A stretch of 64,000 bases of DNA from an uncultured bacterium (GCA_965112635.1 OZ218778.1:832001-896000), one strand, 5' to 3'. Numbered from the stretch's first letter, positions 8,615-24,907 are shown. The notes: generated from the sequence alone by a model not told the origin. Numbers and translations: made by a program.

Positions 8615-9856
8615 TTGATACAAAAACATAAACTCTTCAGGGTCTATTTTTATATACTGGTCCTGCCTCTGTTCATCCATTTTATCCCTTATTTCAGCAG
8701 CTTTTTCTATAGAAGCCCCGCGCTATCCCTTATCTTATCCGTGATTCCCTGGATAGGGCTGGCCATCTTGGGGTTTATGGGGCTCAAGCTCAACCAGAGC
8801 CGGTTTTTCCTGTCCTCCCTGATCCTGCTGGCCAGCTATTTTGCCCTGACCAACCCCGGCCTTTTCCTATGGATGAAGCTTGGACCCGGAGAGGTGCGCA
8901 ACATCCTCGGCGTCGCCTTGCCCCTGTCGCTGACCTTTGTTTTCCTCCTCAAGGAAAGCCCTTTAAGGGGAAGCCCGGGTCTGTTGCGGGCCTTGTTCAT
9001 CCTGGGTCCCTTCGCGGTCCTGGGAGGGATGTTCTTCCTTTATCAGGAGGCCTACCTGAAGATCATGGAGTTCAATTTTTATGTTTTGAAAGACCTCATC
9101 AAGTTCCCGCACGCCGCCCTTATTTCCATTTTTATTTTTGGCTTCACGGCTTTTTCCTTGAAGGACAAAAAAGTGAATCTTTTCGTGGAGGCTCTGTTCC
9201 TGGCGCAGCTCCCGGTCTATTTCATCCTGGCCCTGGACGCGGGACCGGGAGCGCCCAAGCCTCTTTTGGGGCTTTGCTGGACCGCGGTCTGCGGGGTGCT
9301 GTTGCACGCCATGTTCACGCTCTACTGGCAGAGGGTGTACCTGGACGAACTGACCGGTGTCCCCAACCGAAGGGCCCTGGAAGAACACCTGGTCCATCTG
9401 CCCGAGAAATATGTCCTGGCCATGATCGATATTGACCATTTCAAGAATTTCAACGACCTCTACGGGCATGACCAGGGCGACCATGTCCTCAGACTGGTGG
9501 CGCGGCATCTGGCCAAAGAACTGGACAACAAAGCCTACCGCTACGGCGGGGAAGAGTTCTGCGCGCTCCTGCCGGACAGTTCCATGGCAGAGGCCGACCG
9601 TATGGCGGAAAAGGCGCGTGCCCGGCTGGAGAGAAGGATCTTCCACATCCGGCCCTCCAGGGAGAATAAAGCGGAGGCCGGAGAGGACGCGGGCAAGAAT
9701 TCAGCGGCCCGGCACCAGGTCAAGATCACGGTCAGCATGGGTTTGGCCAGCCCCGATAAAAACCACAAGACACCCCTGGAAGTTTTGAGCTGGGCGGACC
9801 AGGCCTTGTACCAAGCCAAAGCAGACGGCAGGAACTGCGTCCGGGTGGCCTCGTAA
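8615..9856 (+). CDS. Membrane-bound diguanylate cyclase (GGEEF)
   Basis: Multiple TM helices, then DELTGVPNRR, DIDHFKNFNDLYGH..GD, RYGGEEF, ADQALYQAKADGRN; no RxxD I-site. Confidence 0.92.
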   Translation: MIQKHKLFRVYFYILVLPLFIHFIPYFSSFFYRSPALSLILSVIPWIGLAILGFMGLKLNQSRFFLSSLILLASYFALTNPGLFLWMKLGPGEVRNILGVALPLSLTFVFLLKESPLRGSPGLLRALFILGPFAVLGGMFFLYQEAYLKIMEFNFYVLKDLIKFPHAALISIFIFGFTAFSLKDKKVNLFVEALFLAQLPVYFILALDAGPGAPKPLLGLCWTAVCGVLLHAMFTLYWQRVYLDELTGVPNRRALEEHLVHLPEKYVLAMIDIDHFKNFNDLYGHDQGDHVLRLVARHLAKELDNKAYRYGGEEFCALLPDSSMAEADRMAEKARARLERRIFHIRPSRENKAEAGEDAGKNSAARHQVKITVSMGLASPDKNHKTPLEVLSWADQALYQAKADGRNCVRVAS

Positions 9857-11080: not shown

Positions 11081-12172
11081 ATGAATAAAATGAGCCGCCA
11101 GAAAAATCCTCATCATACCAACCCGATTTTTTCCAAAGAGATGTATTTCATCTTTGTCATCGCTTTTGTCGTCTTTTCCCTGCTCATCCCAGACTACCGC
11201 CAATCCTTCCTGATCTGCGCCCTGTTCTGCGGGCTGGCTTTTCTGTGGACCCAGCACCGCGGTTCCGTGATCATGACGAAGGTGCAGGAGTTCGATGAAG
11301 AGATCCAGCGGCCCCGCAGCGCAGCCGAGGGAGAACTGTTCCAAAAAGTCAGGGCGATCATCGTCAATTTCCAGAAAAATCCCAGACTGATCGCGCATTC
11401 TATTTTTTCCGCGGAGATGTGGTTCTTTCTGCTCAGTGTTTTTGTGATCTTTGCCATTTTGGCCCCACCTTTCCGCCAGGTCTTTCTTATCTGCGCCTTA
11501 TTGAGCGGGGCGGGATTTCTCTGGGTGGACCGGCGAGCCCTGAAGGTCATGGGCAGGGTGGAGGAGTTCACAAAAGAGATCCGAACGCTCGGTTTTTTTG
11601 AGGACGGAAAGCTTTTTGAAGAAGCCAAGGAACGGTACCAGACCCTGCTGGGCAAGTACAGGAACATTCCCGAGTTCTCCTGGATCATCAAGGTCAGTTT
11701 GCAGCGTTTGGAGACGGGCTATCAAGAGAAGTTGCAGAAGACGCGGATGAAACAGGAAGAGGTCATCGCACGCCAGTCCGCCGTAGAAAAAGAAAAAATC
11801 GACAGCGCCAAGAGCTTCGGGTTCGACGAGAAGAAAGACCGCCGCCGTCACCCCCGGTATCCCGTAGCCCTCACGGTCGGTTCGATCACTTCCATGAGCG
11901 AACCCGGGCAGAGCTATGAAGGCCAGGTCAAAAATCTCAGCCTCAGCGGAGCCCTCATTGAAAGTTTGCGTGAATTCAATTCCGGCGATACCGTCATGAT
12001 TTCGGGCATCCCTCTTCCTGAAAATGGGGAGTTGAAGGATATTTTTGCCAGGGTCGTCCGGGTAGCCGGTCCGGTCAGCCATCTAGCAGGATTAGAGTTC
12101 CTCTATATGACCGACCATGACGTGAGCACCATCGATTGTTTCCTCAAAAAGAGCAATACCCAGCCAGAATAA
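11081..12172 (+). CDS. Membrane protein with a tandem-duplicated 2-TM module and a C-terminal PilZ domain
   Basis: PilZ motifs RRRHPR and NLSLSG; internal repeat with a 92-aa period. Confidence 0.85.
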   Translation: MNKMSRQKNPHHTNPIFSKEMYFIFVIAFVVFSLLIPDYRQSFLICALFCGLAFLWTQHRGSVIMTKVQEFDEEIQRPRSAAEGELFQKVRAIIVNFQKNPRLIAHSIFSAEMWFFLLSVFVIFAILAPPFRQVFLICALLSGAGFLWVDRRALKVMGRVEEFTKEIRTLGFFEDGKLFEEAKERYQTLLGKYRNIPEFSWIIKVSLQRLETGYQEKLQKTRMKQEEVIARQSAVEKEKIDSAKSFGFDEKKDRRRHPRYPVALTVGSITSMSEPGQSYEGQVKNLSLSGALIESLREFNSGDTVMISGIPLPENGELKDIFARVVRVAGPVSHLAGLEFLYMTDHDVSTIDCFLKKSNTQPE

Positions 12173-13561: not shown

Positions 13562-14227
13562 CTACTGTTCATCCTTGTGATGCCGGATATCCTTGCCCTT
13601 GACCATAAAGATGACGTCCTCGGCCACATTGGTCGCGTGGTCGCTGATCCTCTCCAAATTGCGGGAGATGAGGATCAGGTCCAGGGACTGGTGGATGATG
13701 CTGGGATCATGCTGCATGATCTTTAACAGCTGGTCGAAGGTCTGCGCCTTGAGCTTGTCCTCTTCGTCGTCCATTTGCAGGACCTGGCGGGCCAGGGCTT
13801 CGTCCTTGTTGACATAGGCATCCAGGCTTTTCTTGACCATGGCCATGGCCACTTCGGCCATTTTAGGGATGTCAAAAAGCTTTTGCCTGAGCTGGGGCTG
13901 GTCCAGGAGGATCAGGGAGGTCTGGGAAACATTGACCGCCAGGTCGCCCATGCGCTCCAGGTCGGAAATGATCTTCATGGCCGAAGCGATGAAGCGAAGG
14001 TCCACGGCTGCCGGCTGATACAACGCCAGAAGCTTGATGCAATGCTCATCGATGTTCAGCTGCAAGACGTTGACCTGCTGTTCGCGGTTGGCGACCTCTT
14101 TGGCCAGATCGGCCTTGCGTTCCTCCAGCTCCTTGACCGCCAGGTGGATCATTTCCTCCACCAGGCCGCCCATCAGGAGGACCTGTTCTTTGATGACTTT
14201 CAGCTCCTCATCCAAGTGGCGTTCCAT
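13562..14227 (-). CDS. phoU: Phosphate signalling protein PhoU (copy 1)
   Basis: QPAAVDLR, DLERMGD, LERISDHATNVAEDVIF, DIRH. Confidence 0.95.
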   Translation of the reverse strand: MERHLDEELKVIKEQVLLMGGLVEEMIHLAVKELEERKADLAKEVANREQQVNVLQLNIDEHCIKLLALYQPAAVDLRFIASAMKIISDLERMGDLAVNVSQTSLILLDQPQLRQKLFDIPKMAEVAMAMVKKSLDAYVNKDEALARQVLQMDDEEDKLKAQTFDQLLKIMQHDPSIIHQSLDLILISRNLERISDHATNVAEDVIFMVKGKDIRHHKDEQ

Positions 14228-14248: not shown

Positions 14249-15028
14249 TTACCCAAAACGGCCGGTCAAATAATTTTCCGTGCGCTGGTCCTTTGGGTTA
14301 GTAAATATTTCCGAGGTCACGCCGTATTCGATCAAGTCCCCCAAGAGAAAGAACGCCGTGAAATCCGAAATCCTACCGGCCTGCTGCATGTTGTGCGTTA
14401 CGAGGACTATCGTATAGTTTTTTTTCAAATTTTGAAAGAGTTGTTCGATCTTGAGGGTAGAAATCGGGTCCAGGGCCGAACAGGGCTCATCCATGAGCAA
14501 AACCTCGGGTTCCACGGCCAAAAGGCGTGAAATGCAGAGCCGCTGCTGGGATTCCAACGGCAGGGAAAGGGCCGGACGGTGCAGTATATCCTTAACCTGC
14601 TCGAAAAGATCGGTGGCGGCAAGGCTTTTTTCCACGAGTTCATGGAGTTTTTTGCCTCTGGCCATGTCGTGGATCCTGGGGCCGTAAGCCACGTTCTCGT
14701 AGATGGACAGGGGGAAAGGGTTGGGCCGTTGGAAGACCATGCCCATCCGTTTCCTCAGGTCGCGCTTGTCCAGGGAGTAAATATTGGTGTTCTCCAAAAG
14801 GATCTCGCCGGTCAGGTGAAAGCCGGGGATTTTGTCGTTCATGCGGTTGAGGCAGCGGATAAAGGTGGACTTGCCGCAGCCGGACGGCCCGATGATGGCC
14901 GTAATAGCCCGCTCGGTGATCCCCATGGACACACTTTTCAAGGCAGGGAATGAGACATAATTAACGCTGAGATTTTTGGACTCCAGCTTGAAAGCCAGAG
15001 CGGTTTTAACCGAACTTGCCAGAGACAT
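14249..15028 (-). CDS. pstB: Phosphate ABC transporter ATPase with a degenerate ABC signature
   Basis: [24 protein letters not shown] and VTHNMQQA are intact, but the signature reads LPLESQQR. Start placed at MSLASS (GGAGGA upstream). Confidence 0.9.
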
Positions 15029-15776
15029 AGTCCTCCGTCCTTTTATCCTTGGGCGCCGTGAAAAGTTCTCCGGTCGGGCCATATTCCACCAGCTGGCCCA
15101 TCAATAGAAAAGCCGTATTGTCGGAGACCCGGGCGGCCTGTTTGACGTAGTTCGTGACCAGGATGATAGTGTATTCCTTTTTCAATTCCTGCAGGGCTTC
15201 CTCGATCTTGGCGGTGGAGATCGGGTCCAGGCCCGAGGAGGGCTCGTCGAGCAGAAGGAGTTTGGGACGCAGGGCCAGGATGCGGCTCAAGCACAGTCTC
15301 TGCTGCTGCCCGCCGGAAAGGTTGGAGGCGGGATCCTGCAGCCTGTCCTTGACCTCGTCCCAGAGGTAGGCGGCTTGGAGGGACTGTTCCACGCGGTTCT
15401 CGATCTCCTTCCGGCTCATGCCGTCCTTGAACAAGAGACCCAGGGCGATGTTGTTGAAGATGGTGCCGGGCAAGGTAATGGGTGAGGCGAAAACCATGCC
15501 GGCTTGGGCGCGGAGTTCGTAGAGGTCCACCTCCGGAGCGTTGATATCTTGGCCATCCATAAAGATCTGACCGGTCATTTTAAAACCCGGGGTGATGTCG
15601 TTAAGACGGTTGAGGCAGCGCAGGAAGGTGGTCTTGCCGCTCCGGGCCGGGCCGATCATTCCAAATATTTTATTACGGGGGATCTCCAGGGACAGGTCTT
15701 CTACGGCTTGTTCGCCATGGAACCAGACATTCAGATTTTTGACCTCGATGACGGCATTGCTTTCCATGGCGCTCAT
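15006..15776 (-). CDS. pstB: Phosphate ABC transporter ATPase with degenerate Q-loop and H-loop
   Basis: [15 protein letters not shown] (Q>A), intact [17 protein letters not shown] (H>N), [10 protein letters not shown]. Confidence 0.9.
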
Positions 15777-16684
15777 CTCCTAAACCTCAATTTGGCCCTG
15801 AGCTTGCCGCGGGCCAGGATGGCAAAGAAATTCAAAGTAAAGGTCAGGGTCAACAGCACGAGCACGGTACCGAATAGGATGGGCTTGGTGGCTTCGACAT
15901 CCGGGGACTGCGTGGCCATGACATAGATGGAGTAACCCAATTCCATGAACTGGTCGTTGAGTTTGTGAGGGAGATAGGGGAGATAATAGGCCACCCCGGT
16001 AAAAAGTTCCGGGGCCACCTCACCGGAGCCACGGCTGATGGCCAGGATGGCGCCGGTCAAAATCCCCGCGACCGCGTTGGGCAGGACCACCTGCCGGATG
16101 ACCTGGAACCGGGTGGCGCCCACCGCGTAGGCCGCTTCGCGGAAGGCGTCGGGGACGGCCCGCAAGGATTCCTCGGTCGTCACGATGACCGTGGGCAAGG
16201 TCAAGAACGCCATGGTCAGGGCCGACCAGATGATAGCGGGCTGCCCGAAGTGCAGGGTGCCGCCGAAGAAAAGTTTGTCTATGCCGACCCCGCAGAAGTG
16301 GATCAAAAATCCCAGGCCGAACAGGCCGAACACGATGGAGGGGACCCCGGCCAGGTTTTGCACGGCCATGCGGACGATCTTGACGTAAAAAGAGTCCTGG
16401 CGGGCGTATTCGTGCAGGTAAACCGCGGTGGCTACGCCCAAGGGCACGACGGCGATGGTCATGAGGATGACCAGGGAAATGGTCCCAAAAATGGCAGGGA
16501 ATATGCCGCCCCGCGTCATCCCGGCCTCAGGGGCCTTGGTCAAGAAGCCCCAGGAAATCACGTCTTTACCGTTGTAAATGATAATTCCCAGGATGACTGT
16601 CACCATGGCGATGATGATAAGAGCGCACAACCCGGTCAGGGCCGAGAAGGTGAGACCGCTCAAACGGGTCAGCCAGCGCTTCAT
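15773..16684 (-). CDS. pstA: Phosphate ABC transporter permease PstA
   Basis: GGIFPAIFGT, NLAGVPSIVFGLFG, REAAYAVGATR, SRGSGEVAP. Confidence 0.93.
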   Translation of the reverse strand: MKRWLTRLSGLTFSALTGLCALIIIAMVTVILGIIIYNGKDVISWGFLTKAPEAGMTRGGIFPAIFGTISLVILMTIAVVPLGVATAVYLHEYARQDSFYVKIVRMAVQNLAGVPSIVFGLFGLGFLIHFCGVGIDKLFFGGTLHFGQPAIIWSALTMAFLTLPTVIVTTEESLRAVPDAFREAAYAVGATRFQVIRQVVLPNAVAGILTGAILAISRGSGEVAPELFTGVAYYLPYLPHKLNDQFMELGYSIYVMATQSPDVEATKPILFGTVLVLLTLTFTLNFFAILARGKLRAKLRFRR

Positions 16685-16760: not shown

Positions 16761-17738
16761 TCATTTAGAGCCTCCCGTGAGTTTGCGCCGCAGGCGATTG
16801 ACGAACCATTGGCCGGCCAGGTTGGTCAAGAAAGTGAAGATGAACAGGAACAACCCTATGAAGAAAAGGACGTGATAGTGGGAACTGCCCCGGACCACTT
16901 CGGCCAGTTCCGCGGCGATGGTGGCGGACAGGGTCCTCACGGACTGTGTAAAATCAAGGGAAACCAGGGCCGCGTTGCCCGAAGCCATCAGGACGATCAT
17001 GGTCTCGCCGATGGCCCGGCCGAACCCCAGGACGCAGGCGGCGAACACGCCGGGAAAAGCCGCGGGCAGGATGACCCGCCAGGCGGTCTGCCAGCGGGTG
17101 GCGCCCAGGGCGTCGGAGCCTTCGCGGAAACGCGTGGGCACGGCCGACAGGGCATCCTCGGTCACGGTATAGATAATAGGAATGACGGCCAGGCCTACGC
17201 CGATCCCGGCGGTGATGGCGTTGAGGCGGAAGGTCCAATGGATCATCTGCTCCAGCCAGGAAGCTAAGACCATGAGGGCGAAAAATCCCATGACCACCGA
17301 AGGGATACCGGCCAAAAGTTCAATGGCGGGTTTCATGACCTGCAAGAGCCAGGGCGGGGCAAACTCGGAGGTGAAAAGGGCGGCGCCCAGGGCCAAAGGC
17401 ACGGCGAGCAAAAGGGCCACGGCCGTGATCTTGAGCGTGCCCGCCAGCAGGGGGATCAGGGAATATTTGGGAATCTCAGAGGTGGGGATCCAAAGGAATT
17501 TGTGGGCTTGGGAATAGTTAAGGTCCTGTGGGACGTTGGGCAGAAAGAGCTTACCCAGGTCAGCTTCCTGTCTCACCTCGGGAGAAGTGAAAATCGGCAA
17601 GGCTTCCTTGCCGATAAAGATAAAGATCAGCAGCAGGGTGGCGATCACGCCAAAGGCGCTGGCGCGGATCAGAAACTCAAAGAAGTTTTCTTTCCACCGG
17701 TTCTTTTTTAAAATGAAAGACCTTACTTTAGCGTCCAA
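16761..17738 (-). CDS. pstC: Phosphate ABC transporter permease PstC
   Basis: KPAIELLAGIPSVV, ALGATRWQT, GRAIGETMIVLMASGN. Start placed at the TTG just after the pstS stop. Confidence 0.92.
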   Translation of the reverse strand: MDAKVRSFILKKNRWKENFFEFLIRASAFGVIATLLLIFIFIGKEALPIFTSPEVRQEADLGKLFLPNVPQDLNYSQAHKFLWIPTSEIPKYSLIPLLAGTLKITAVALLLAVPLALGAALFTSEFAPPWLLQVMKPAIELLAGIPSVVMGFFALMVLASWLEQMIHWTFRLNAITAGIGVGLAVIPIIYTVTEDALSAVPTRFREGSDALGATRWQTAWRVILPAAFPGVFAACVLGFGRAIGETMIVLMASGNAALVSLDFTQSVRTLSATIAAELAEVVRGSSHYHVLFFIGLFLFIFTFLTNLAGQWFVNRLRRKLTGGSK

Positions 17739-17743
17739 GGGAA

Positions 17744-18586
17744 CTATTTCCCCGATCTTTTCAGCGGATAATAACCGACCTTTTGACAGACCTCCTGGCC
17801 CTGTTTGCCCGCGACCCAATCAATGAATTTCTTGGCGCTGGGAGAAGGCTGGCCGACCGTGTAAAAATAGAGGTAACGGCTAAGGGGATACTTTCTGCTC
17901 ATCACGTTCTTCATGGTCGGCTCCAGGGCTTTGCCAGTAGGCTCTTTGCTGATCTTCAGCACCTTGACCCCTTTGTTATAGCCGATGCCGCCGTAACCGA
18001 TGGCCTTTTCATCCTTGGAAACCGCGTTGACAATGGCGGCGGTGCCCGGCAAGGACTGGACCTCGGGAGCGAAATCCTTTTTGTCCAGCACATGCTCCTG
18101 GAAAAAAACATAGGTCCCGGAGTTGTTTTCCCGGCCGTAGGGCACGATGACCATATCCGCGCCCCCGACCTCTTTCCAGTTGTGGACCTGGCCCATAAAG
18201 ATCTTTTGGAGCTGGGGGAAGGAAAGCTGGTTCACCTTGTTGGAACTGTACACGTAGATACCGATGCCGTCCAAGGCCACAGGGATTTCCACGGCGGCTT
18301 TGCCCTGTTTTTCTTTTATTTCTCCCGATTCTTTGGGGCTGATGGGACGGGAGGCCATGCAGATATCCGTAGAGCCCGTGATCAAAGCGGAAATCCCGGT
18401 CCCTGACCCGCCGCCGGTGACTTGGACCACTTCGCCTGGATTGGTTTTCATATACTCCTCAGCCCATCGCTGGACCAGGATGATCATCGTGTCCGAGCCT
18501 TTGATGGTCAGGCTGCTCCCGGCCCAAAGGAGAACCGGTGTAAAGATTAATGACACAAGAAGAACGACGAGCAATTTTTTCATCAT
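17744..18586 (-). CDS. pstS: Phosphate ABC transporter substrate-binding protein (short GSDT type)
   Basis: Signal peptide, TIKGSDT, GGGSGTGI, MASR, RENNSGT, YPLSRYLY. Confidence 0.93.
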   Translation of the reverse strand: MMKKLLVVLLVSLIFTPVLLWAGSSLTIKGSDTMIILVQRWAEEYMKTNPGEVVQVTGGGSGTGISALITGSTDICMASRPISPKESGEIKEKQGKAAVEIPVALDGIGIYVYSSNKVNQLSFPQLQKIFMGQVHNWKEVGGADMVIVPYGRENNSGTYVFFQEHVLDKKDFAPEVQSLPGTAAIVNAVSKDEKAIGYGGIGYNKGVKVLKISKEPTGKALEPTMKNVMSRKYPLSRYLYFYTVGQPSPSAKKFIDWVAGKQGQEVCQKVGYYPLKRSGK

Positions 18587-18724: not shown

Positions 18725-18762
18725 AAAAAACCCTGTTGGGAGCCAACTCCAACAGGGTTTTT
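18725..18762 (-). terminator. Rho-independent terminator after phoU copy 2 (potentially bidirectional)
   Basis: AAAAAACCCTGTTGG...CCAACAGGGTTTTT inverted repeat with T tails on both strands. Confidence 0.85.
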
Positions 18763-18764
18763 GA

Positions 18765-19433
18765 TCAGCCCTTTGCTTCGCGGGTGTGGCGGATATCTTC
18801 ACCGGAGACCATGTAAATCACATCTTCGGCAATATTGGTCGCATGGTCGCCGATACGCTCCAAATTTCTGGAGATAAGGATCATTTCCAGGGCCTGGGGT
18901 ATGCAGGAGGTTTCCTTGGTCATGAGCTTGAGCATTTCATCAAATATTTCGGCCTTGAGCTCATCCTCCCGGTCGTCATTTTCGAGGATTCGGCGGGCCA
19001 GTTCCACATCATGATTGACATAGGCGTCCAGGCTGTCTTTAAGCATGGCCAGAGTATGCTGGGTCATCACGGAGATGTTGGACAATTTTTCCCGCAGCTG
19101 GGGCTGCTCCAGCATGATGAGCGAAGTCTGCGATATGTTGACGGCCTGGTCGCCGATGCGTTCCAGGTCAGAGATGATCTTCATCGCGACCGTGATGAAC
19201 CGCAGGTCCACTGCCTCGGGCTGGAACAGCGCCAGCAAACGAATGCAGTTCTCGTCCGTTTCTTTATGAAGCTGGTTCACTTCCTTCTCGCAGGTGGCCA
19301 CTTCCTGGGCAAGGTCTGGTTTTCTTTCCATAAGTTCCTTGAGGGCCAGGTGGATCATCTGCTCGACCATACCGCCCATATACAAGACCCGGTTCTTGAT
19401 GATCTTCAGTTCTTCATCAAAGCGCCTTTCCAT
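18765..19433 (-). CDS. phoU: Phosphate signalling protein PhoU (copy 2)
   Basis: QPEAVDLR, DLERIGD, LERIGDHATNIAEDVIY. Confidence 0.95.
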   Translation of the reverse strand: MERRFDEELKIIKNRVLYMGGMVEQMIHLALKELMERKPDLAQEVATCEKEVNQLHKETDENCIRLLALFQPEAVDLRFITVAMKIISDLERIGDQAVNISQTSLIMLEQPQLREKLSNISVMTQHTLAMLKDSLDAYVNHDVELARRILENDDREDELKAEIFDEMLKLMTKETSCIPQALEMILISRNLERIGDHATNIAEDVIYMVSGEDIRHTREAKG

Positions 19434-19473
19434 AGAGCTCCTTCCTTTTTGTTAAATTGGCTTGCTTGCTGGG

Positions 19474-20376
19474 CTATCCAAACCTGCCGGTGATATAAGC
19501 TTCGGTGCGTTTGTCCTGGGGAGTGGTGAACAGAATATCTGTCTTGTCAAATTCAATGAGCTGACCCATGAGCATAAAACCGGTCTTGTTGGAGACCCGG
19601 GCGGCCTGCTGCATGTTATGGGTGACGATGACGATGGTGTAGTTGGTCCGCAGTTCGTGCAGCAACTCTTCGATCTTTCCGGTCGAGATAGGGTCCAGGG
19701 CGGAGCAAGGCTCATCCATCAGGATCACTTCAGGTTCGATAGCCAGGGCCCGGGCCACGCAGAGGCGCTGCTGCTGGCCTCCGGAAAGGGCCAGCCCCGG
19801 CTTATTAAGAATATCTTTCACTTCTTCCCAAAGGGCCGCTTTGCGCAGACTTTGCTCCACGACGTCGTCGAGCTTTTTGTCCGAGGCCAGGCCGTTCAAG
19901 CGCAGTCCCACCGCGACATTTTCATAGATGGACATCGTGGGAAATGGGCTCGGCTTTTGGAAGACCATGCCGATACGGCGGCGGACCGTTACAGGGTCCA
20001 CGGATGCCCCAAAAATGCTTTTGCCGTCAAAGATGATGTCGCCTTTAAGGGTAGCGCCCGGGATGGTTTCGTGCATGCGGTTGATGCAGCGGATCAAGGT
20101 GGATTTGCCGCATCCGGAAGGGCCGATCAAGGCGGTGATCTCTCTTTCCCTAATATCCATATTTACAGAGAACAGGGCTTGTTTGGAACCGAACCAAGCG
20201 GATAGCCCGTCGATCTTAATTTTTATCTCCGCGGCCGGATTTTCCAGCTGTTCGCCTGTTTTTTCGACCGGTATTTTGACCGTTAATGTTTCCTTGGTAT
20301 TGTCCATAGGTCCTTCCTTTGGCAAGGCATTGAGGGGCTCCTTTGTCCCGACTTTATCGACCACATTGGTTTCCAT
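19474..20376 (-). CDS. pstB: Phosphate ABC transporter ATPase, canonical motifs
   Basis: [44 protein letters not shown]. Confidence 0.95.
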
Positions 20377-20388
20377 ATTTTTCCTTTT

Positions 20389-21240
20389 CTAAGCGCGTAT
20401 GTATTTAGCTCTTTTGAAAATCGTCCGGGCAATAAGATTGATCGTTATAACGAGGATCAAAAGGACCAAAGCGCCGCTCCAAGCCTGGGCGTGCCATTCA
20501 TTAAATGGAGAGATGGCGTAAGAGTAAACCTGGACCGTCAGCGAGGCGGTTGGCTGCAAAGCGGAAGACCAGAACTGGTTGTTAAAAGCCGTGAACAACA
20601 GAGGGGCGGTTTCGCCGCCAACCCTGGCGATAGAAAGCAGAATACCGGTCAAGATGCCGCTCCAGGCTGTTCTTACCACCACACTAAGAATGACCTTCCA
20701 ACGGGGGACTCCCAGAGCCAGGGCCGATTCGCGGACCGAATTAGGGACCAGTTTGATGAGCTCTTCGGTAGTCCTGGCCATGATGGGCACCATCATAAAG
20801 CTAAGCGCCAAGCCGCCCGCAAGCCCGGAAAAATGCCCCAGAGTCCTGACCGCCCAGGCATAGGTGACGATGCCGGTCACGATGGAGGGGACCCCGGAAA
20901 GCACATTGGAGGTGAACCTGACCAGGAACGCAAAGCGGCTTTCTTTGCCGAATTCCGCCATATAGATACCGGACAATACGCCACAAGGGATGCCAATAAC
21001 ACTGGCAATGAACAGGATGGTCAGGGAACCTACTATGGCGTTGGCCATCCCGCCTCCCGGGGTTCCGACCGGCACAGGCAAATGGGTGATAAAGGCCCAG
21101 TCCAAGCGGCCCCATCCCTGGATGACGATGTAGGTGATCAGGCTGGCTAGGGGCAAAAGGACTATCACGCAGGCCAGGCCGCAGAGAAAAACCATCAGGC
21201 GGTCCAGCAATCTCCGGCGTGCCGCTAAATTGGAGTTCAT
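20389..21240 (-). CDS. pstA: Phosphate ABC transporter permease PstA
   Basis: GGMANAIVGS, LSGVPSIV, RESALALGVPRW, ARVGGETAPLLFT. Confidence 0.95.
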   Translation of the reverse strand: MNSNLAARRRLLDRLMVFLCGLACVIVLLPLASLITYIVIQGWGRLDWAFITHLPVPVGTPGGGMANAIVGSLTILFIASVIGIPCGVLSGIYMAEFGKESRFAFLVRFTSNVLSGVPSIVTGIVTYAWAVRTLGHFSGLAGGLALSFMMVPIMARTTEELIKLVPNSVRESALALGVPRWKVILSVVVRTAWSGILTGILLSIARVGGETAPLLFTAFNNQFWSSALQPTASLTVQVYSYAISPFNEWHAQAWSGALVLLILVITINLIARTIFKRAKYIRA

Positions 21241-22250
21241 GCGGCCCCCTTTGCGGATTGTTGAAATTGCCGGGAGGTCAGCCAGATTAGCATATGAGCG
21301 GCGACGTTCAAAATAAGCGTGATGACCATCAGAAGCAGGCCGATCTCGATAAGAGAGGAAAGATAAAGATTACCGGTGGCTTCGCTGAACTCATTGGCGA
21401 TAACGCTGGCCATACTATGGGCCGGGGCCAGCAGGTTGGGGGAAACCTGGGCTTTGTTGCCGATGACCATGGCGACCGCCATGGTCTCTCCCAGGGCCCG
21501 GCCAAGGGCTAGCATGATCGCTCCAAGCATCCCGGGTTTGGAAGGTTTTAAAACCGCGATCCTGATCATCTCCCAGCGGGTCGTCCCCAGAGCCAACGCG
21601 GATTCCCGCATGGTGTTGGGGACGGTTTCAAAAACCTCGCGTGAGATGGAAACGATAGTAGGCACGATCATGATGGCCAGGATAATGCCGGCTGTAAAAA
21701 GAGAAAGTCCGATAGCCGGTGCGGCAAAGAAGGGTTTGCCGATCCATTGGATAAGAAAAGGACTGACGTGGACCCGTAAAAAGGGCGCTAAAGCGAAAAT
21801 ACCCCACAGGCCATACACCACGCTGGGAATGGCGACCAGGGTTTCGACGAGAAAGGCCAGCGGCTGACGCAGGGGATAGGGCGACAATTCGGTCAGAAAA
21901 AGCGCCACGCAAAGCCCGAGCGGCACAGCCAAAAGAAGGGCCAAAAGAGAAGAGGCGACCGTACCATAAACATAAGGCAGAGCCCCGAAAAGCTCTTTGA
22001 CGGGGTCCCAAGCGGAGCTGAACAGAAAGCCAAAACCAAATTTTTGGACAGCCGGCCAGGCTGAAATGCAAAGCTGCACGGTCATGGCCAGGGCCAGGGC
22101 CAGGATCAAAAGGGCAAAAAAACCGGTGGCAAATCGAAAAATACGGTCCGCCAGGCCTTGTTTGTTGACCCATGAAACCAATGAAAAGAGCGGGAAGGGT
22201 TGTTCGCCCTTCCCGCCCTCTTTTTTTGACACCATTACAGAAGCACTCAC
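21237..22250 (-). CDS. pstC: Phosphate ABC transporter permease PstC
   Basis: WDPV..FGALP, IPSVVYGLWG, ALGTTRWE, GRALGETMAV, IANEFSEA. Confidence 0.95.
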   Translation of the reverse strand: MSASVMVSKKEGGKGEQPFPLFSLVSWVNKQGLADRIFRFATGFFALLILALALAMTVQLCISAWPAVQKFGFGFLFSSAWDPVKELFGALPYVYGTVASSLLALLLAVPLGLCVALFLTELSPYPLRQPLAFLVETLVAIPSVVYGLWGIFALAPFLRVHVSPFLIQWIGKPFFAAPAIGLSLFTAGIILAIMIVPTIVSISREVFETVPNTMRESALALGTTRWEMIRIAVLKPSKPGMLGAIMLALGRALGETMAVAMVIGNKAQVSPNLLAPAHSMASVIANEFSEATGNLYLSSLIEIGLLLMVITLILNVAAHMLIWLTSRQFQQSAKGAA

Positions 22251-22275
22251 CCTTCGTTCCTTTTAAAACAAGGTC

Positions 22276-23310
22276 TTAGTACTTGATCTCGGCTATCTTT
22301 GCTTTTACTTTGGCCACCAGAGAGTCGGGCAGGGGGGCATAATACAGATCTTTTTCCATGCTCATCCCCTTGTCCATAGCCCAGTTCAGATAGCTCACAA
22401 CCGCTTCGCCAATATTGTGGTCCGAGTACTTGGCATAGACCAAGATCCAGGTAAACCCGGCGATCGGGTAGGAATTCTGGCCCGGTGCGTTGGTGAACAT
22501 GATCTTAAAATTCGAGGGCATGTGCGCCAGGGCGCCTGCAGCCGCCTCCGTCACATTATCAATGGTCGCGTCCGGATAGTTGCCGGCACGGTTGCGGATA
22601 CGTGCGTAAGACAGCTTGTTCTGGAGCGCGTAGGCCAGTTCGATATAGCCCAGAGTCCCAGGGACCTGGGTGATGACCCCGGCCACCCCGTCATTACCTT
22701 TGCCGCCGACCCCGACCGGCCAGTTGACCGCGGTGCCATAACCCGCGGTAGAAGCCCATTTGGTGCTCACTTTGGTCAGGTAGTTGGTGAAAATATTGGT
22801 CGTTCCGCTGCCGTCAGAGCGATGGGCCACGTTGATGGCCATATCCGGGAGGTTCATGCCCGGATTAAGGCTCACGAGGGCTTCATCGTTCCATTTGGTG
22901 ATGTTGCCGAGGAAAATATCGGCCAGCACTTTGGGGGTCATCTTGATGCCATCCGCAACTCCCGGCAGGTTGTAGGCCAGGACCACGGCGCCCATAGCTG
23001 CAGGAAGGTGGAATACCGCTTCCCCAACGGCTTTTTCCTGTTCGTCAGTCATATAGGCATCGGTCCCCGCGAAGTTGACGGTGTGGTTGGTCAATTGCTG
23101 GATACCGCCTCCGGAACCAATGGCCTGGTAGTTGATCTGCACACTGGTGTCTTTGTTGTACTCATAACCCCACTTTTGATAGAGGGGAGCAGGAAAAGTA
23201 GCTCCCGCCCCATTGAGCGACACTCCCGCGAAACCCAGGGAGCAGGTCACGATCACGGCCGTGAGGCCCAGGGCTACACCTGCCGCGCCTTTCTTGATTA
23301 AGTTCAACAT
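22276..23310 (-). CDS. pstS: Phosphate ABC transporter substrate-binding protein (E. coli PstS type)
   Basis: GAGATFPAPLY, NYQAIGSGGG, HRSDGSGTT, GKGNDGVA, YPIAGFTW. Confidence 0.96.
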   Translation of the reverse strand: MLNLIKKGAAGVALGLTAVIVTCSLGFAGVSLNGAGATFPAPLYQKWGYEYNKDTSVQINYQAIGSGGGIQQLTNHTVNFAGTDAYMTDEQEKAVGEAVFHLPAAMGAVVLAYNLPGVADGIKMTPKVLADIFLGNITKWNDEALVSLNPGMNLPDMAINVAHRSDGSGTTNIFTNYLTKVSTKWASTAGYGTAVNWPVGVGGKGNDGVAGVITQVPGTLGYIELAYALQNKLSYARIRNRAGNYPDATIDNVTEAAAGALAHMPSNFKIMFTNAPGQNSYPIAGFTWILVYAKYSDHNIGEAVVSYLNWAMDKGMSMEKDLYYAPLPDSLVAKVKAKIAEIKY

Positions 23311-23344: not shown

Positions 23345-24907
23345 CTAGAAGCGATAACGGGTGCCGATGGTATAGAGCGAAGTCTGGCTGATACCGCTTG
23401 TGGCGAACATACCGGCTGCTGTGGAGCTGCCAGCGCTGACTTTGCTGACACCCGCCGAAGTGGTTCCCGTGGAACCGGCCACCGAGCCGCCATCCAGGGC
23501 GCCAGAGAGGTTGCTGTAGCCATAGCAGATATATATATCGCTTTTTTTGCTGAGGTAATAATCAGCAGTGAATAAATAGGTATCACGCACTCCGGAGTCA
23601 CCCTCGTTGATGACATTGCCGGCGAAATCGTTGTAGTAGGAGCAGATGAACTCCCATTCCGTGACCGGTATATATTTGATGGAAGCGTTGATGACCTGGT
23701 CAAAACGATCCTGGGCCGGTGCAGAGGTCTCAGAGTTGGCATTAGCAATGGTGTCTCCGGTGTTAGTGCTGGCGCTACTGGTCACAGCAGCGTAGGATGA
23801 ACCCGGGACCATCTGATCGCCGGTGATGTTCATAAAACCACGGTCAAAGTTGGACTGCATATAGAAACCGTAGAGCTGGATCATGGCGGGCTGAGAGCCG
23901 AGGAGCTGGCCTTTCTGGTCCAGCAGGTTGCATACCATGGCTCCGGCTTCATCATAGTGGTTATGCATGGCGCCGTCATTCTCGTTCTGGAAAGCCGCCA
24001 CGAGTTTGGTCTGCATGGGGTCGCAGTTGTAAGTCAGGCTGGCCGCATACATGCAGTTCCCGTTCAGGTCGCCCGCGGGATTGCCGAACGCGTAATCAGC
24101 GCCGACGATGAACCCGAACCAGTTGCTGCTGATATATTTGACCGACTCATCCCAGCGCAGTCCCGAATAGTTCAGGAAAAAGGTGTTTTCCTCACCATTG
24201 GTGCCGCCGTAGTTGCCCGCTGTATTGCCGCTGCCGGTGGGTTTGAATAAGACCAAGTTGCCGTGGTTGACACCGAACACGTCGCCGAGCCCGATGGCGT
24301 CAGCAAGAGTCCCGTAGGTGCGGCCCATGGTGAGCTGACCCAGGACTGTGTTGTCCAGGCCTACCCAGGCTTGACGGCCGAATAGCTGGCCCTGCTGATC
24401 AATGGCGCCGGTGCCGGGATACAGACCGCCTTCAAGGGTGGCGATAGCTTTGGTGCCATTGCCGACATTTTCCACTGCCCTAATACCCCAGCGGCTGCCT
24501 TGAAAAACGCCTTGTCCGATATCTGTCCTTATTTGGCCGGTCCCCGAATTGGTTATGTCACCACCCCCAACTGATACACCGCCTTTTCCATTGGCGTATG
24601 GATACCCCATGTTCGTGGATGAGGCCACGTTGGAGTCGATTACGCCGTAGATGGAAATACCTTTTAAAATATCTTCGGTGGCGCTTACCCTCTTGGTCAT
24701 ATCGCCAAGCGCCATGCCGACCTCTGCTTTATAGTCATCCAGGCTGGCCTGCAAGTCCGTGTCACTTGGCTTGGCCATATCCTGGGCTGAGACTGCCATC
24801 ACTGTGCCCATGGTCGCGAGCGCCACGAGCATCATCAGAAGCGCCAGGGTTCCTTTCTTGAGAATTTTTGAGGCTGAAGATTGAAACCATTTCTTTTTCT
24901 GACTCAT
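23345..24907 (-). CDS. Outer-membrane porin (Gram-negative general porin family), first gene of pst operon 2
   Basis: Signal peptide, SIYGVID, SRWGIR, LFGRQAWVGL, LTMGR, YYLSKKSDIY, C-terminal Phe (YRF). Confidence 0.82.
   Translation of the reverse strand: MSQKKKWFQSSASKILKKGTLALLMMLVALATMGTVMAVSAQDMAKPSDTDLQASLDDYKAEVGMALGDMTKRVSATEDILKGISIYGVIDSNVASSTNMGYPYANGKGGVSVGGGDITNSGTGQIRTDIGQGVFQGSRWGIRAVENVGNGTKAIATLEGGLYPGTGAIDQQGQLFGRQAWVGLDNTVLGQLTMGRTYGTLADAIGLGDVFGVNHGNLVLFKPTGSGNTAGNYGGTNGEENTFFLNYSGLRWDESVKYISSNWFGFIVGADYAFGNPAGDLNGNCMYAASLTYNCDPMQTKLVAAFQNENDGAMHNHYDEAGAMVCNLLDQKGQLLGSQPAMIQLYGFYMQSNFDRGFMNITGDQMVPGSSYAAVTSSASTNTGDTIANANSETSAPAQDRFDQVINASIKYIPVTEWEFICSYYNDFAGNVINEGDSGVRDTYLFTADYYLSKKSDIYICYGYSNLSGALDGGSVAGSTGTTSAGVSKVSAGSSTAAGMFATSGISQTSLYTIGTRYRF

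Follow-up and report, generated by a model that had tools for sequence, protein, structure and literature searches.

Two PstB paralogues with complementary motif deviations point to an asymmetric ATPase in a bacterial phosphate importer

Results

Two different PstB subunits with complementary motif deviations are encoded side by side

The DNA stretch analysed here, 64,000 nucleotides from an uncultured bacterium (GCA_965112635.1 OZ218778.1:832001-896000; hereafter the window), carries two complete pst operons in tandem on its minus strand. One of them encodes two non-identical ATPase subunits, PstB-alpha (P0002; 15006..15776, 256 amino acids) and PstB-beta (P0001; 14249..15028, 259 amino acids), which were assigned by translation and alignment and which probably act together as an asymmetric motor of a phosphate importer. 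Coordinates without a locus name are those of the window and refer to its minus strand unless a plus sign is given. Both proteins match the Pfam family PF00005 (ABC_tran), alpha with an E value of 5.3e-24 and beta with one of 6.4e-23. With TIGR00972, the PstB equivalog model with a curated cut-off of 343.2 bits, beta scored 354.9 bits and the canonical PstB of the adjoining operon (P0003) 385.7 bits; alpha reached 325.0 bits, and TIGR00972 was its best family despite this score below the cut-off. Over its full length, alpha aligned with the E. coli PstB in PDB entry 9k3x at 50% identity (E = 1.9e-73), which settles its fold. Most of this alignment is free of gaps, and E. coli residue n+1 corresponds to residue n of alpha.

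In alpha, the signature motif LSGGQ (L153-Q157; 15306..15320) is intact, and the Walker B motif LLLDEP retains its Asp-Glu pair, the glutamate of which (E178) is equivalent to E. coli E179, which was exchanged to prevent hydrolysis in a study of E. coli PstSCAB (PMC12976172). The Q-loop reads MVFASP as compared to MVFQxP in canonical PstB, with alanine at position 97 (codon 15486..15488) in place of the canonical glutamine (Q98 in E. coli), and the H-loop reads VTNY as compared to VTHN, with asparagine at position 209 (codon 15150..15152) in place of the canonical histidine (H210 in E. coli). The D-loop likewise departs from the canonical sequence, with SGLD for SALD. In beta, the Walker A motif, the Q-loop (MVFQRP), the Walker B motif (LLMDEP) and the H-loop (VTHN) are all intact, and the signature is degenerate: the alignment places LPLESQ (L156-Q161; 14546..14563) where LSGGQQ would be expected, with E159 standing for the second glycine. 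Neither subunit alone holds the full set of catalytic motifs, as alpha lacks the Q-loop glutamine and the H-loop histidine and beta the two glycines of the signature. The original prediction had read such substitutions in both open reading frames (ORFs), and translation and alignment located them there. Its Gln-to-Ala and His-to-Asn exchanges in alpha were borne out; the Walker A that it had listed as altered does deviate from the PstB consensus, and it is not degenerate, as GPARSGKT still fits GxxxxGK[ST].

The two genes overlap by 23 nucleotides. Within the junction (15006..15036), a GGAGG sequence (15032-15036) lies 3 nucleotides upstream of the beta ATG (15026-15028), and the alpha stop codon TAA follows at 15006-15008. 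Because of this spacing we placed the start of beta at 15028; a longer beta ORF from 15082 is probably unused. The overlap together with the ribosome-binding site suggests translational coupling and, by extension, 1:1 expression of the two subunits.

The deviations are conserved in opposite halves of the two proteins' motif sets

In a search of a collection of 5.8 billion proteins, the best 120 homologues of alpha and the best 119 of beta were compared. Alanine in the Q-loop and an intact LSGGQ occurred in all 120 alpha homologues, asparagine in the H-loop and the Walker B Asp-Glu pair in 119 of the 120 each. The beta homologues retained Walker A, the Q-loop glutamine, the Walker B Asp-Glu pair and the H-loop histidine without exception (119/119). 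Their signatures were canonical in 70 sequences and lacked the glycine pair in 49, which follow the pattern L[SPT]xE[QAS]Q and carry glutamate (47) or aspartate (2) at the position of the second glycine.

We then compiled 373 sequences, among them the copies of the window: 160 canonical PstB proteins, 144 proteins of the alpha class and 69 of the beta class. G155, G156 and Q157 of alpha were invariant (144/144), and the second signature glycine was replaced by glutamate in 64 and by aspartate in 2 of the 69 beta-type sequences, with the restriction that the three classes were defined by motifs, so that the figures for positions 97, 209 and 155-156 are in part circular; the independent check on the classes is the masked tree described below. 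Walker A, the Q-loop, Walker B and the H-loop of beta were invariant in the 50 sequences aligned. A comparison of majority residues, for which at least 80% was required in both classes, yielded ten positions at which alpha differs from canonical PstB (38, 46, 49, 97, 102, 182, 194, 206, 209 and 212). These include two exchanges in Walker A (Cys to Ser at 46, Ser to Thr at 49), the Q-loop position 97, a change from PFP to PLP at 102, Ala to Gly in the D-loop (182), the H-loop position 209 and Gln to Lys at 212. Beta departed from canonical PstB only at the position numbered 156 in alpha, where glutamate replaces the second signature glycine. Much of the nucleotide-binding equipment of alpha is retained: the aromatic residue of the A-loop in 139, the Walker A lysine in 142 and the Walker B glutamate in 141 of the 144 sequences, the latter being lost in two Bacillota variants (DRP) and one other sequence (DA). 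Such asymmetric conservation is to be expected if alpha must donate a perfect LSGGQ to the catalytic site of beta and probably still binds nucleotide of its own. The near-uniform replacement in beta suggests that the signature glutamate is selected for, beyond being merely tolerated.

Alpha and beta occur as a pair in many phyla

Within the phylum of the source organism we surveyed 41 genomes including its own, of which 37 gave a match to alpha and 4 did not. The 30 best places were examined; the seven genomes with weaker, canonical-like matches (44-47% identity) stand outside this count. An alpha-type gene (GPxxSGKT, MVFA, LSGGQ, VTN) was present in 11 genomes, the own one and ten further ones with 56-58% identity. 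In all nine loci that were not cut, alpha was followed by a beta-type gene ([LA]EQ signature, VTH), and the other two alpha loci end at contig edges. A second sample was drawn from one genome per GTDB species and comprised at least 80 loci with named sources, those listed being a sample. Alpha was found in 12 of the 80 listed, and beta accompanied it in 10 of these 12, directly downstream in eight loci, upstream of pstS in one (L050) and divergently oriented in one (L078). No beta-type gene was found in any of the 68 canonical-only loci among the 80 listed. As for the two alpha loci in which no beta was visible, the contig of L037 ends soon after alpha, and L044 starts at pstC, so that a beta gene located upstream, as in L050, could not show. 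Repeatedly, the alpha loci had the gene order pstS-C-A-alpha-beta-phoU; alpha, beta and phoU followed each other in 10 of 22, and most of the others were cut or gave no match for phoU. The co-occurrence of both degenerate patterns, for which a survey had been proposed with the original prediction, was thus found in both samples, and the ten further genomes of the phylum, the best 120 alpha homologues and the range of phyla do away with the concern that the substitutions are private to one genome. A recurrence of this extent lies far outside what chance would give.

According to the source names, the carriers belong to Planctomycetota, Verrucomicrobiota, Kiritimatiellia, Ignavibacteria, Elusimicrobia, Omnitrophica, Desantisbacteria, Margulisiibacteriota, WOR-1, Acidobacteria, Thermodesulfobacteriota, Chloroflexota and Bacillota. 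No cultured organism was found among the cluster members of ten alpha proteins from long contigs. When a library of 1.84 billion representatives was searched with a profile built from the alpha alignment, the best 150 matches were mostly canonical PstB, with about ten alpha-like proteins among them.

A canonical pst operon followed by an alpha/beta operon is also found in the WOR-1 locus L041 and in genomes G009 and G022; in the latter two, the canonical pstB shares contig and strand with the pair and lies 3.8 and 4.6 kb upstream of it. In G010 (90% complete), G028 (96% complete) and G041, alpha and beta are the only PstB proteins. Since these three genomes have no other PstB, a Pst system can, judged by gene content, be driven by the pair alone.

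Two further arrangements were noted among the loci and homologues. A Gemmatimonadales locus (L098:3108-4750) has two adjacent pstB genes with fully canonical motifs, so that tandem pstB genes alone need not imply a degenerate site. Two of the 120 long homologues listed (P0243 and P0246, about 507 amino acids) appeared as alpha-beta fusions; each of them has, instead of the C-terminal part of alpha, a sequence that gave no match to any PstB, and we rejected them as probable assembly frameshifts or pseudogenes.

Alpha has a single origin, and both genes are under purifying selection

Trees were calculated from subsets of the sequences with 22 diagnostic columns masked. In a FastTree phylogeny of 141 rows, all 48 alpha rows formed one clade with a support of 98, and a quick IQ-TREE run on 91 rows likewise united all 30 alpha rows (Shimodaira-Hasegawa-like approximate likelihood ratio test, SH-aLRT, 99). 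Alpha is of single origin. On both masked trees beta required three changes, and a single origin of beta is possible.

The sub-lineages of the two proteins covary. In the main one, an alpha with VTN goes together with a beta that has xE in its signature. A Chloroflexota/Syntrophobacteraceae lineage pairs an alpha with VPH, in which the histidine is retained, with a milder beta signature, LSLGQ. The loci L039, L078 and L089 (Syntrophobacteraceae, Anaerolineae) show this alpha VPH together with alanine or threonine in the Q-loop, and their beta has one signature glycine replaced. At the other end of the range, two Bacillota genes of the alpha clade (L050:3986-4765 and L044:1894-2655) have lost both the Walker A lysine (GSGITT) and the Walker B glutamate (DRP), and their Q-loop reads MVFD. 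In this fully dead variant, isoleucine replaces the Walker A lysine and arginine the Walker B glutamate, and LSGGQ is still retained in both proteins. In L050, which belongs to genome G041, the partner beta has the signature LTTEQ and lies upstream of pstS; there is no beta within L044. A search for the dead variant in 41 genomes from the order to which G041 belongs found it in G041 only. This was also the only genome of the order with two PstB matches, the other 29 loci examined being canonical.

Across the paired loci, alpha residue 212 and the beta signature residue occurred in the combinations Lys/Glu (13), Ala/Glu (2), Gln/Gly (3) and Gln/Glu (1), a covariation that is suggestive and represents few independent events.

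Selection was estimated by the Nei-Gojobori method on stop-to-stop ORFs of six genome pairs. Synonymous divergence (dS) was unsaturated in four of them, and in these the ratio of nonsynonymous to synonymous divergence (dN/dS) was 0.04-0.22 for alpha and beta. The proportion of nonsynonymous differences (pN) was 0.07-0.21 for alpha and beta, similar to the 0.06 and 0.19 of canonical pstB in two of these genome pairs. Both genes are under purifying selection with no sign of relaxation, so that relaxed selection, the other outcome that would have spoken against the pair, is ruled out at the level of sequence.

To find the membrane subunit on which alpha docks, we also compared PstA (21 versus 65 sequences) and PstC (22 versus 55) between alpha/beta and canonical operons. 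Residue 244 in the EAA loop of PstC (ALGATRWQT in the window) is glutamine in 22 of 22 alpha/beta operons and glutamate in 78% of the 55 canonical ones; it was the only position to pass the thresholds, with none in PstA, in a comparison whose rows are phylogenetically related. As a lead, PstC Gln244 may mark the docking side of one of the two nucleotide-binding domains (NBDs).

Genomic context of the alpha/beta operon

The genome consists of one 2.88-Mb contig and holds only three genes at the level of PstB. Where the original prediction had spoken of two PstB paralogues, the pair is real, and the third, canonical pstB in the adjacent operon had gone unmentioned. The alpha/beta operon begins with pstS (17744..18586), which encodes a PstS-family binding protein (TIGR02136, 239.1 bits, cut-off 206.6). 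It continues with pstC (16761..17819, start codon uncertain; TIGR02138, 247.9 bits, cut-off 196.45) and pstA (15773..16684; TIGR00974, 250.8 bits, cut-off 193.45), and it ends after alpha and beta with phoU (13562..14227; TIGR02135, 215.2 bits, cut-off 130.25). The two ATPase genes are thus accompanied by pstS, pstC, pstA and phoU, the operon context of a PstB. Upstream, outside the pair, the canonical operon adjoins (18765..23310), with pstS (22276-23310), pstC (21237-22250), pstA (20389-21240), pstB (19474-20376, full canonical motifs in the alignment) and phoU (18765-19433), all on the minus strand. The non-ATPase genes of both operons score above the curated NCBIfam cut-offs. A terminator-like hairpin (18735-18747), identified as a consensus match only, lies between the two operons.

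The ORF of the canonical PstB encodes 300 amino acids, and the match to the PstB model begins at residue 53; either the N terminus is extended by 50 residues, or translation truly starts later. An ORF for 520 amino acids (23345-24907), situated immediately upstream of the canonical pstS, had no NCBIfam match and a sub-threshold match to Pfam Porin_1 (E = 2.4e-4, 21.1 bits as compared to a cut-off of 23.7), and its product may be a phosphate-selective outer-membrane porin. Genes related to cyclic di-GMP flank the pst region on both sides. One at 25007-26098 matches GGDEF diguanylate cyclase models; on the plus strand, 8615-9856 (+) encodes a membrane protein with a GGEEF motif read by eye in the translation, and 11081-12172 (+) a protein with a C-terminal PilZ domain.

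Discussion

A heterodimer with one hydrolytic site would account for the complementary motifs

The two PstB subunits of E. coli PstSCAB are seated on PstA and PstC, one on each, and ATP is held between Walker A and B of one subunit and the LSGGQ of its partner (PMC12976172). If this head-to-tail arrangement applies to the pair, motif mapping assigns all deviations of the two NBDs to one composite site and leaves the other with the full consensus. We therefore favour, with a probability of about 0.78, an obligate alpha-beta heterodimer with one hydrolytic and one non-catalytic ATP site, which would power the second PstS-PstC-PstA importer. Site 1 would be formed by Walker A, Q-loop, Walker B and H-loop of beta and the LSGGQ of alpha, and would hydrolyse ATP. 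Site 2 would combine the P-loop of alpha, its Q-loop alanine and its H-loop asparagine with the LSxEQ-type signature of beta, and would be non-catalytic. With this heterodimer, the transporter would hydrolyse one ATP in each cycle, whereas both sites would be impaired in a homodimer of either subunit. That the heterodimer forms, that only one site hydrolyses ATP and that site 2 is occupied by nucleotide is what we infer from the sequences. The complementary-site argument of the original prediction is supported by the E. coli architecture, as far as reported in PMC12976172, together with the pairing survey.

Site 2 probably still binds nucleotide, because alpha keeps the P-loop lysine and threonine, the Walker B Asp-Glu pair and the A-loop aromatic residue. 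It might serve as a stable nucleotide-bound hinge, as a site that closes without nucleotide, or as a sensor. For the glutamate in the beta signature, CFTR offers a precedent at G551, which we take to be the second glycine of its LSGGQ. In the G551D and G551E variants, the acidic side chain disables ATP-driven closure, and ATP at the affected site turns into an inhibitory ligand through repulsion of the gamma-phosphate (PMC4178940). A beta homodimer would carry this defect in both of its sites.

A more far-reaching version, which we regard as speculative and rather unlikely, is that site 2 is no relic and instead a purpose-built allosteric site that reports the energy or phosphate status of the cell to the PhoU of the same operon, in an importer working at one ATP per phosphate. 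The beta glutamate together with N209 and K212 of alpha would then replace the usual contacts to ATP's gamma-phosphate, and site 2 would either hold its nucleotide unsplit or close without one. If the uncultured carrier lineages are energy-limited, as we assume, an adaptation to one ATP would fit them.

Several observations weigh against the asymmetric heterodimer. Loss of the Walker B glutamate is described as a hallmark of degenerate sites (PMC7544095), and alpha has retained this residue, so that residual hydrolysis at site 2 is possible. The canonical PstB encoded 3.7 kb upstream could pair with either subunit in this genome. The sufficiency of one PstB in E. faecalis implies that adjacent pstB genes need not encode obligate partners. 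To these come the partly circular class counts mentioned above, and no genuine alpha-beta fusion was found among the 120 long homologues listed.

The E. faecalis case leads to the proposal that a beta homodimer is the motor, with alpha as an accessory or regulatory NBD-like protein that faces PhoU or PhoR or acts as a conditional stand-in. There, PstB1 is accessory and PstB2 suffices when overexpressed (PMC12096839), and beta is indeed canonical outside its signature and scores above the TIGR00972 cut-off, with alpha below it. However, both E. faecalis paralogues are canonical, which makes the case not equivalent (PMC12096839), and a beta homodimer would have the Gly-to-Glu signature in both sites, the type of exchange that blocks NBD closure in CFTR G551D/E (PMC4178940). 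The invariant LSGGQ of alpha (144/144) is hard to explain unless it completes some catalytic site, and beta was never seen without alpha in the canonical-only loci listed (0/68). On balance we consider a beta motor improbable. Mixed dimers of alpha or beta with the neighbouring canonical PstB would each have one consensus site, and the short distance of 3.7 kb on the same strand, as well as the two-operon arrangement that L041 (WOR-1), G009 and G022 share with the window, would suit such a pairing as the main one. Nevertheless, G010, G028 and G041 have no canonical PstB, the first two being 90% and 96% complete, and the genes of alpha and beta overlap and always occur together; the terminator-like site between the operons adds weak evidence in the same direction. 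Pairing mainly with the canonical subunit is very improbable in light of these genomes. That alpha and beta are decaying duplicates or sequencing artefacts without special function is hardly credible: the departures from consensus themselves are all that could be cited for it, and they stand against two intact reading frames, the same substitutions in many phyla, dN/dS values of 0.04-0.22 and genomes in which alpha and beta are the sole PstB.

Asymmetric ATP sites are central to many ABC (ATP-binding cassette) exporters and to CFTR, and type I binding-protein-dependent importers are usually treated as symmetric, perhaps using two ATP per cycle. For a phosphate importer of type I, an ABC ATPase with asymmetric sites is apparently undescribed, well known as the design is in exporters; in agreement with the original prediction, a search of open-access full text and bioRxiv found no description of an asymmetric PstB pair in Pst. 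The alpha/beta Pst system would be a natural and widely conserved importer in which, as it appears, one catalytic site does the work. It offers an experimental handle on the number of ATP used per substrate, on the contribution of the second site and on how PstB conformation is passed on to PhoU/PhoR signalling. It also bears on annotation, as alpha falls below the curated PstB cut-off and both subunits are simply named 'PstB' in the source records.

Comparison with known systems

E. coli PstSCAB (PDB 9k3x, 9k3y and 9k3s; PMC12976172) has the same gene set, pstS, pstC, pstA, pstB and phoU. Its PstB subunits are identical and form two consensus sites, whereas the operon described here encodes two different subunits, and one of the resulting sites would lack the Q-loop glutamine, the H-loop histidine and the signature glycines. 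Adjacent pstB genes within one pst-phoU operon, as found here, are known from E. faecalis (PstB1/PstB2) and B. subtilis (PstBA/PstBB) (PMC12096839; PMC11466899). The B. subtilis transporter has been modelled as PstBA-PstBB-PstC-PstA-PstS (PMC11466899), and the functions of the two E. faecalis proteins are non-equivalent; according to the authors of that study, none before it had compared tandem pstB paralogues (PMC12096839). In contrast to the E. faecalis subunits, both of which have canonical motifs (PMC12096839), the pair in the window deviates in the Q-loop, the H-loop and the signature.

Degenerate sites are frequent in exporters (PMC3971661; PMC7756269). In the heterodimeric TM287/288, TAP1/2, CFTR, BmrCD and MsRv1273c/72c, the deviations are confined to one composite site, as here (PMC3971661). 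The likeness to CFTR, TAP and TM287/288 drawn in the original prediction therefore holds for the combination of one consensus with one degenerate site; it does not extend to the Walker B glutamate, which is usually lost in the degenerate site of heterodimeric exporters and is retained in alpha. Moreover, these exporters and channels are built from half-transporters in which transmembrane domain and NBD are fused, whereas Pst belongs to the type I importers, depends on a binding protein and has free NBDs. The degenerate signature LNVEQ of yeast Pdr5 and Candida Cdr1 has a glutamate at the second glycine, like the LSxEQ of the beta family, and the degenerate site of Pdr5 still holds ATP (PMC8421411). 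When this site of Pdr5 was rendered active, ATPase activity was lost (PMC8421411). Pdr5 is a single-chain eukaryotic exporter, and the Walker B glutamate, too, is missing from its degenerate site; as the families are unrelated, the resemblance of the signatures would be convergent. The sugar and nucleoside importers RbsA and NupO have, as proposed here, one degenerate ATP site out of two (PMC11466899). They belong to another transporter family, and their degenerate site lacks the Walker A lysine (PMC11466899). Their NBDs are fused in a single polypeptide, unlike alpha and beta, which are encoded by separate, overlapping genes.

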